Positions 8,821 through 8,936 of a stretch of 10,891 nucleotides of DNA are shown here, piece by piece. The position numbers were made by a program, and so were the translations under genes. The DNA comes from Escherichia coli (GTDB taxonomy: Bacteria; Pseudomonadota; Gammaproteobacteria; Enterobacterales; Enterobacteriaceae): assembly GCF_003334355.1 (NCBI RefSeq), contig NZ_QOWP01000055.1. The stretch is one strand, 5' to 3'. Position 1 is the first letter of the stretch; every line of letters begins with the position of its first letter. Under the pieces are notes generated by a model. That model saw only the letters and a program-made list of their open reading frames with translations. It did not search any database and was not told the origin of the DNA.

Positions 8821-8853
8821 CCAGAAACAACAAAACCCGCTCAATGGCGGGTT
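8821..8853 (-). terminator. Intrinsic terminator just downstream of the Q-like gene (tR'-like position)
   Basis: Minus-strand RNA AACCCGC-CAUUGA-GCGGGUU followed by UUGUUGUUUCUGG; sits about 85-115 nt after the Q stop codon, where lambdoid phages place the short Q-dependent late leader transcript terminator. Confidence 0.6.
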
Positions 8854-8936
8854 CTGGTAAAGTTCATGCGCTTGGTTCGCCTCGCGATACAGCTTTGCGA
8901 AGCATACCGGAATTGAAGCAGTTTATGCGTAAAAAA
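8854..8936 (-). promoter_or_regulatory. Presumed late promoter / Q-utilisation region (P_R'-qut equivalent); exact -35/-10 not resolved
   Basis: Inferred from position only, between the Q stop and the first downstream terminator; candidate hexamers (TTCAAT, TATGCT) are weak matches and I could not place a convincing -35/-10 pair. Confidence 0.25.

Follow-up and report, generated by a model that had tools for sequence, protein, structure and literature searches.

We find that the interval 8950..8825 on the minus strand of a 10,891-nucleotide stretch of Escherichia coli DNA (contig NZ_QOWP01000055.1 of assembly GCF_003334355.1; the whole stretch is henceforth referred to as the window) is probably the late regulatory cassette of a lambdoid prophage, i.e., a late promoter, a Q-loading (qut) site and a terminator; we put the probability of this reading at about 80%. 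The cassette begins within the last codons of a gene for a Q-like antiterminator, and all its genes and elements lie on the minus strand. Although Q-dependent antitermination is a textbook switch, the Q proteins for which, to our knowledge, it has been worked out in detail are few, namely those of lambda, 21 and 82. The switch described here is ordinary in kind (the usual lambdoid late-gene switch) and is newly mapped for an unstudied relative of phage 21 Q. The original prediction, made from the sequence of the window, had placed about 85-115 nucleotides (nt) between the Q stop codon and a hairpin with a U tract, and had proposed that this compact interval yields a short, Q-dependent late leader. 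The estimate agrees with the 80 nt that we count to the hairpin and the 115 nt to position 8821. The proposal itself held up in that every sequence-level element was located and found to be conserved, with the start site, the pause and the dependence on Q being predicted from these elements.

Based on the sequence and on the phage 21 model, the cassette would work as follows. Host RNA polymerase carrying sigma-70 would start near A8905, using a -35 element (TTGATT) that overlaps the Q stop codon and a -10 element (TTCAAT). Sigma region 2 would then re-bind the hexamer TATGCT (8906..8901), and the polymerase would pause about 15-18 nt 3' of the start. Without Q, transcription would end at the hairpin and U tract (8856..8825) and a leader of about 78 nt would be released. 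With Q, the upstream gene's product, a protein of the Pfam family DUF1133, would bind TTACGC and AAACTG between the -35 and the -10 and load onto the paused polymerase; the modified polymerase would read through the terminator, a moron and a second terminator (7922..7893) into the lysis and morphogenesis genes.

Predicted late promoter and pause element

We compared the interval with homologous loci from six E. coli genomes, 80 viral contigs with Q proteins 92-100% identical, three contigs with Q proteins 38-60% identical and 36 viral contigs related to a distant family member. These provided 47 unique close variants and, for the promoter region, 67 unique sequences in all. A common layout was found, consisting of a -35 TTG, a 17-nt spacer, TTnAAT, five poorly conserved nucleotides, TAnGCT, a conserved transcribed block, a variable stretch and a terminator, and it is kept in relatives whose Q proteins are 37-100% identical. 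Over all unique sequences, the majority-base frequency was highest in the TAnGCT hexamer (0.93), followed by the second half of the spacer together with the -10 (0.81), the next 24 transcribed nucleotides (0.79) and the -35 (0.76). The Q coding sequence reached 0.59, and the 5-nt linker between the -10 and the hexamer (8907..8911) was the least conserved part of the module (0.53).

In the window, the predicted -35, TTGATT (8940..8935), contains the Q stop codon TGA (8939..8937) and lies 17 nt from the predicted -10, TTCAAT (8917..8912), which is non-canonical in having T for A at position 2. Five nucleotides further on stands TATGCT (8906..8901), a -10-like hexamer that we predict to be a sigma-dependent pause element. 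Within the last Q codons, just 5' of the -35, an A tract (8945..8950) may act as an UP-like element. The TTG of the -35 is kept 17 nt 5' of the -10 in nearly all of the 67 unique relatives, and TTnAAT is kept family-wide. Distant relatives carry TTGACA or TTGACT at the homologous -35 and the canonical TAAATT, TACGAT or TAAGAT at the homologous -10 (e.g., TTGACT-16-TAAATT in L119, L121, L124 and L127, or TTGACA-16-TAAGAT in L126). These canonical hexamers at homologous positions support the placement of the promoter in the window. Judging by the spacing to the -10, the most likely start site is the invariant purine A8905.

No convincing sigma-70 pair had been seen by eye in the original prediction, which suggested that the promoter might be atypical or overlap the 3' end of Q. 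A consensus promoter scan, likewise, called none in 8940..8900 or elsewhere between the Q stop and the hairpin, passing over TTGATT-TTCAAT because of the T at position 2 of the -10. The predicted promoter has both of the suggested properties, with a -35 that contains the Q stop codon and a non-canonical -10. The overlap goes further in many distant members of the family (L091-L125, e.g., L094 at 1135-1170), in which the Q reading frame runs through the -35 and the spacer and stops within the -10 (TTGAat, TTAAat). The C-terminal tail of these distant Q proteins, RFYLNSEPVTD, is thus translated promoter; the Q protein of the window is shorter and ends within the -35. At two loci (L110 and L115) we found no recognisable TAnGCT module or terminator directly 3' of the Q stop, and there the module may have been lost or an insertion may have occurred.

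The same arrangement is found in phage 21, for which we used a curated record (OL657228, locus L087). There, the Q stop at 1677 is followed by the -35 TTGACA (1684-1689, beginning 7 nt after the stop), the Q-binding subsites ATTGAGCA and AATGAGCA (1692-1707), the -10 (1707-1712), the start site (1719), the pause element TAAGCTG (1720-1726) and the end of the terminator (1768). The entire cassette thus fits within 91 nt and its leader is about 50 nt long, and a compact interval is therefore the norm for this Q lineage. The TATGCT of the window belongs to the same class of hexamer as TAAGCT, the sigma-dependent pause element of phage 21, and two variants (L003 and L005) have TAAGCT itself, identical to the annotated element. 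In both systems (phage 21 structures 6P18, 6P19 and 6JNX) the Q proteins are remote homologues, the promoter (a predicted one in the window) starts within a few nucleotides of the Q stop, two hexamer subsites (candidates in the window) lie 26 and 18 nt 5' of the TAnGCT pause hexamer, and a short leader ends in an intrinsic terminator. By contrast, the distance from the Q stop to the end of the terminator is 91 nt in phage 21 and 115 nt here, the predicted leader is longer here (about 78 against about 50 nt), and there is a 2-nt shift in where the promoter hexamers stand with respect to subsites and pause element. The subsites also differ (TTACGC and AAACTG here, TGAGCA twice in phage 21), the terminator of the window does not begin right at the pause element, and its conserved, initially transcribed region of 30 nt has no phage 21 counterpart.

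Phage 21 is a closer comparison than the lambda 6S RNA with which the leader had originally been likened: 6S measures 194 nt, 2.5 times the length predicted for the leader here. The cassette nevertheless follows the logic of lambda PR'-qut-tR', in which a constitutive late promoter (PR') has a Q-binding element between its -35 and -10, the transcript opens with a -10-like pause hexamer (AACGAT, +1 to +6), and the leader is terminated (PMC6606751). Lambda differs further in that its Q belongs to an unrelated protein family (PF03589) and in that it also requires a -35-like element (PMC6606751).

The module is physically separable from the Q gene. Two E. coli prophages carry a P1-type immunity cassette inserted between the DUF1133 Q gene and the late module (L001, 640-1502; L002, 694-1295). 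The inserted cassette comprises isrK, a C4 antisense RNA with a1/b1 targets and an ORF6N antirepressor gene; a near-consensus promoter of its own (TTGACT-17-TATATT) overlaps the Q stop codon. In both prophages the homology to the window runs from the A tract just 5' of the -35 to the U tract, and the module stays beside the late genes. The late module moves as a unit. Some part of our 301-nt query was matched in 1839 of 5426 complete E. coli genomes (about a third), many of the matches covering only query positions 51-61 to 169-180, which correspond to 8950..8821 of the window. E. coli FDAARGOS_497 (NZ_CP033850) carries a module 100% identical to that of the window.

The Q-like protein and its candidate binding subsites

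The gene upstream of the module (9479..8937) encodes a protein of 180 amino acids. Its start is most likely the ATG at 9479, which overlaps the stop codon of the preceding gene (ATGA), and its own stop is the TGA at 8939..8937. Pfam DUF1133 covers the full length of the protein (E = 3e-109), and the PHROGs database assigns it to PHROG 753 (‘anti-termination protein Q-like’). PF06530, the family of the Q proteins of phages 21 and 933W, gives a weak and partial match (E = 7e-5), and in pairwise comparison with phage 21 Q (Q21) an identity is detectable over a 25-residue N-terminal stretch only. Because such pairwise comparisons were marginal, we built a family profile from 24 diverse DUF1133 members (alignment A1). 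This profile matches the Q21 chains of 6P18 and 6JNX in the PDB (E = 3.6e-10) over Q21 residues 42-156, which include the DNA-binding helices, and the alignment places the SK...TCxRR motifs of DUF1133 opposite Q21 helices H5 and H6, both of which contact DNA (PMC6606751). Compared with Q21, the DUF1133 protein has a shorter loop in its helix-turn(loop)-helix.

An AlphaFold model of the 180-residue protein had a mean predicted local distance difference test (pLDDT) score of 60.5, with a poor N-terminal half and a good C-terminal half. When this low-confidence model was searched against the PDB with Foldseek, the ten best matches were all Q21 (probability about 1, template modelling score 0.42-0.57). 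From these results we conclude that the gene product is a distant and as yet uncharacterised relative within the Q21 superfamily, belonging to the separate Pfam family DUF1133. The family is small (69 representatives when clustered at 50% identity) and is found in Escherichia, Salmonella and Citrobacter; a full-text literature search returned no paper that names DUF1133. Upstream of the Q-like gene lie a NinB-family gene and an HNH-endonuclease-family gene (annotated as DUF1364 in related prophages).

We placed candidate Q-binding subsites by counting back from base 1 of the pause hexamer. The TGAGCA cores of phage 21 start at -26 and -18, and the same two positions in the window are taken by TTACGC (8932..8927), the candidate upstream subsite, and AAACTG (8924..8919), the candidate downstream subsite. 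The ACTG core of the latter is conserved across the family, and its TG could double as an extended -10. In the subgroup of Q proteins with the helix motif TCRRR[IV], positions -26 and -18 hold TGAGCC and TGACTG, a direct repeat with the same 8-bp period as in phage 21 and close to it in sequence; helix H6 of Q21, which binds TGAGCA, reads TCRREV.

More generally, the upstream hexamer covaries with the predicted recognition-helix motif (i.e., the residues aligned to Q21 H6) over seven subgroups. Proteins with TCEKRI, including that of the window, are accompanied by TTACG(C/T)A (83 loci), and those with TCRRR[IV] by TGAGCC (20 loci, with one further locus combining TSRRRV and TGAGCC). The remaining pairs are TCERRV with TGTCG(C/T) (6 loci), TCE[S/T]RI with TTGCGCG (7 loci), TCQRRI with TTTGAC (3 loci) and, at one locus each, TCERRI with TTGACGTA and TCQRRV with TTGACCTA. 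Such a pattern would be expected if the element is a Q-binding site read by the helix. We treat the association as suggestive, not as proof, because the groups are clades of tightly linked DNA.

Terminator and predicted leader RNA

The module ends in an intrinsic, tR'-like terminator at 8856..8825. A terminator scan found a 10-pair stem at 8856..8831, CAGAACCCGC-CATTGA-GCGGGTTTTG, with the tail TTGTTTCTGG extending to 8821; in the G+C core of the stem 8851..8847 is paired with 8840..8836, and UUUUGUUGUUU (8835..8825) forms the U tract. The same hairpin appears in the minimum-free-energy fold of 8905..8815 (-31.3 kcal/mol, z = -2.4). As terminator-like sites occur three times in 1.5 kb, compared with 1.5 expected from shuffled sequences, the hairpin alone is not beyond chance, and we judge it to be real because of its position and conservation. 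A hairpin with a U tract is present in 76 of the 77 unique homologous intervals, the exception being cut by a contig end. In these 76 the hairpin has -7.9 kcal/mol or better, and the U tract starts 60-82 nt after the pause hexamer (38 nt in phage 21). Locus L122 has a U tract at 106 nt after the pause hexamer, in addition to a terminator-like hairpin at about 60 nt. The 34 representatives contain 22 distinct helices, and we regard the terminators as homologous because most of these share a CCCGC/GCGGG core. Double compensatory changes are few (C-G to A-T in L006 and L057, C-G to T-A in L122), and two loci (L005 and L107) have a different stem.

An alternative, longer pairing between CCAGAA and UUCUGG had been thought to compete with the terminator stem. 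The pairing itself exists: ACCAGA, 5' of the hairpin, can form 6 of 6 pairs with TCTGGT (8826..8821). We found no support for the proposed competition or for any other function of the pairing, since it encloses the terminator stem, has a 3' arm that is reached only at or after the point where release is expected, and is lost in relatives (4 of 6 pairs for AATAGA with TCTGG, 3-4 of 6 for ACCAGA with unrelated tails), with no compensatory changes seen.

If the leader is taken to run from the A of TAnGCT through the first 8 nt of the U tract, its predicted length is 65-80 nt in the relatives (median 68) and about 78 nt in the window, where the start would be near A8905. The first part of the leader, together with the base before the start, is a nearly invariant, initially transcribed region of 30 nt, TATGCTTCGCAAAGCTGTATCGCGAGGCGA (8877..8906). 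Here the majority-base frequency is 0.98 in a set of 32 close unique variants and 0.79 when all 67 are counted, and the region can still be recognised at 40% Q identity. Within this block lies a near-palindrome, GCTTCGCAAAGC, whose perfect form, GCTTCGCGAAGC, is found in several other subgroups. The block is followed by the variable middle of the leader (8857..8876), which takes alternative forms in relatives; in many E. coli genomes homology breaks near 8876. RNAalifold, applied to a MAFFT alignment of the leaders, gave only four invariant pairs and no covariation. It missed even the terminator because loops of 5 and 6 nt were misaligned, and the terminators were therefore assessed sequence by sequence. 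At gathering thresholds, no Rfam family was found in the window; permissive matches (Leu and Trp leaders, isrK and P9) rest on the terminator hairpin, lie far below threshold and were dismissed.

Three prophage RNAs invite comparison with the leader. StxS, a small RNA (sRNA) derived from PR'-tR' of Shiga-toxin phages, binds Hfq and regulates host genes (PMC7547250). Like the predicted leader it is a short RNA produced by termination just 3' of the Q gene and 5' of a moron (stx there, an open reading frame (ORF) of 189 codons here). In contrast, StxS is processed from a 258-nt precursor, and it is for StxS that Hfq binding and regulation are shown. The leader matched no Rfam or other RNA family, a direct comparison with the StxS sequence not having been made. 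IsrK (RF01394), an Hfq-binding RNA of Gifsy-1, resembles the leader in size (77 nt) and in its terminal terminator. However, although a genuine isrK copy directly follows the DUF1133 Q gene in L001 and L002, it is separate from the late module there, the two being about 850 nt apart, and in the window the IsrK covariance model scored 11.5 bits against a gathering score of 50. The third, HnrS (EcOnc10-12), is a 66-nt multicopy prophage sRNA that we rejected as a candidate for the leader. By its Sakai coordinates (Tree 2014, supplement) it is encoded on the opposite strand, flanked by the DNase and Rz genes, and it is therefore a different RNA.

Alternative readings and downstream genes

Several observations weigh against a Q-dependent late cassette. 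The -10, TTCAAT, has a T at position 2, where an A is normally critical, and the promoter goes uncalled in the consensus scan. The link between helix and subsite is one between clades of linked DNA, so that co-inheritance alone could yield part of it, and TTACGC and AAACTG resemble each other weakly. The structural model of the Q-like protein is of low confidence, and we infer the start site, the pausing and the dependence on Q from sequence. Finally, conservation at +20 to +30 of the transcript exceeds what a model of pausing and loading explains.

This last point bears on a different reading, in which the short terminated transcript acts, also or instead, in trans as an Hfq-dependent sRNA that would be made constitutively in lysogens, like StxS, with the 5' 30 nt as a seed and the U tract as an Hfq handle. 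We consider this possible but tentative. StxS and also lambda 6S, a PR'-tR' transcript able to bind Hfq and regulate host genes (bioRxiv 2024.10.31.621285), provide precedents; a predicted leader of 65-80 nt with a terminal hairpin and a U tract would suit such a role, as would a 5' block conserved beyond the needs of a pause signal alone and a module matched in so many E. coli genomes. However, no Rfam family matches, the leader is not the multicopy sRNA HnrS, there is no covariation for a 5' stem, and the conservation of the block could reflect DNA-level demands of pausing and Q loading. Equally tentatively, the leader may be viewed as a widespread prophage sRNA that acts in trans in lysogens through its 5' 30 nt, or the 5' block as an extra RNA or DNA loading element for DUF1133-type Q proteins that phage 21 Q does not need.

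Two simpler accounts of the hairpin fare worse. It is improbable that the hairpin merely terminates an early-right operon ending with Q, with the conserved block being no promoter and the late promoter lying elsewhere. The consensus scan, which calls none in the interval, does call a promoter-like site inside Q at 9002..8973, in keeping with that account. We rejected this site, whose TATATT becomes TACATT or TACGTT at synonymous positions in relatives and which is missing from L001 and L002, where Q and the module are apart. Moreover, the block matches the late promoter and qut site of phage 21 exactly in geometry and stays with the late genes when parted from Q, and from the terminator to the holin gene (8830 to 7400) the consensus scan called no sigma-70-like promoter on the minus strand. 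Since no promoter was called before the holin, the lysis genes plausibly depend on terminator-resistant polymerase coming from the module. Least credible of all is a leader-peptide attenuator, in which a 13-codon ORF, MLRKAVSRGEPSA (8905..8864, from an ATG at 8905..8903 to a TGA at 8866..8864), would couple translation to termination. The ORF is present in the window, and there is a weak Rfam resemblance to Leu and Trp leaders (E about 1-3). Yet the resemblance comes from the terminator hairpin only (15-16 bits against gathering thresholds of 41 and 50), the ORF is without a Shine-Dalgarno sequence, and its ATG lies in TATGCT, in place of which most relatives have TACGCT or TAAGCT. The ORF is probably untranslated because its start codon is missing in most relatives. 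We retain the reading of the interval as a late promoter, a Q-loading site and a terminator.

Directly after the terminator lies the moron ORF (8715..8146; 189 amino acids), which belongs to PHROG 11870 (unknown function) and gave no Pfam or PADLOC match; some phage records list it as a putative membrane protein. Where the U tract ends, so does the homology to other prophages, and the sequences beyond diverge into varied cargo, i.e., the 189-codon ORF here, and other small ORFs or tRNA genes elsewhere. The site after the late terminator is a classic moron insertion point of lambdoid prophages (PMC4104026). Among the variable cargo, we observed the Rfam family STnc100 3' of the module in L002 (1813-2068) and L006 (2311-2497), a convergent AgvB anti-sRNA in L002 and tRNA genes at several loci.

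Between the moron and the holin gene stands a second, strong intrinsic terminator (7922..7893), GGCCCCGG-CATGTC-CCGGGGCT, with an 8-pair stem containing seven G-C pairs (7922..7901) and a T tract. The first late (lysis) gene, at 7457..7807, encodes a lambda-family holin (TIGR01594, E = 5e-41). As the second terminator precedes the holin gene, late transcription must pass two terminators.

At the level of sequence, our analysis maps the predicted promoter and pause element, the candidate subsites and the terminator that go with the DUF1133 branch of Q proteins. The natural pairs of recognition helix and upstream subsite offer a ready set of specificity swaps for studying how Q21-type proteins read DNA. 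Should the leader act as a regulatory RNA, it would rank among the common ones. Finally, the cassette marks the moron insertion point, which predicts that the cargo genes placed there would be expressed only on induction.

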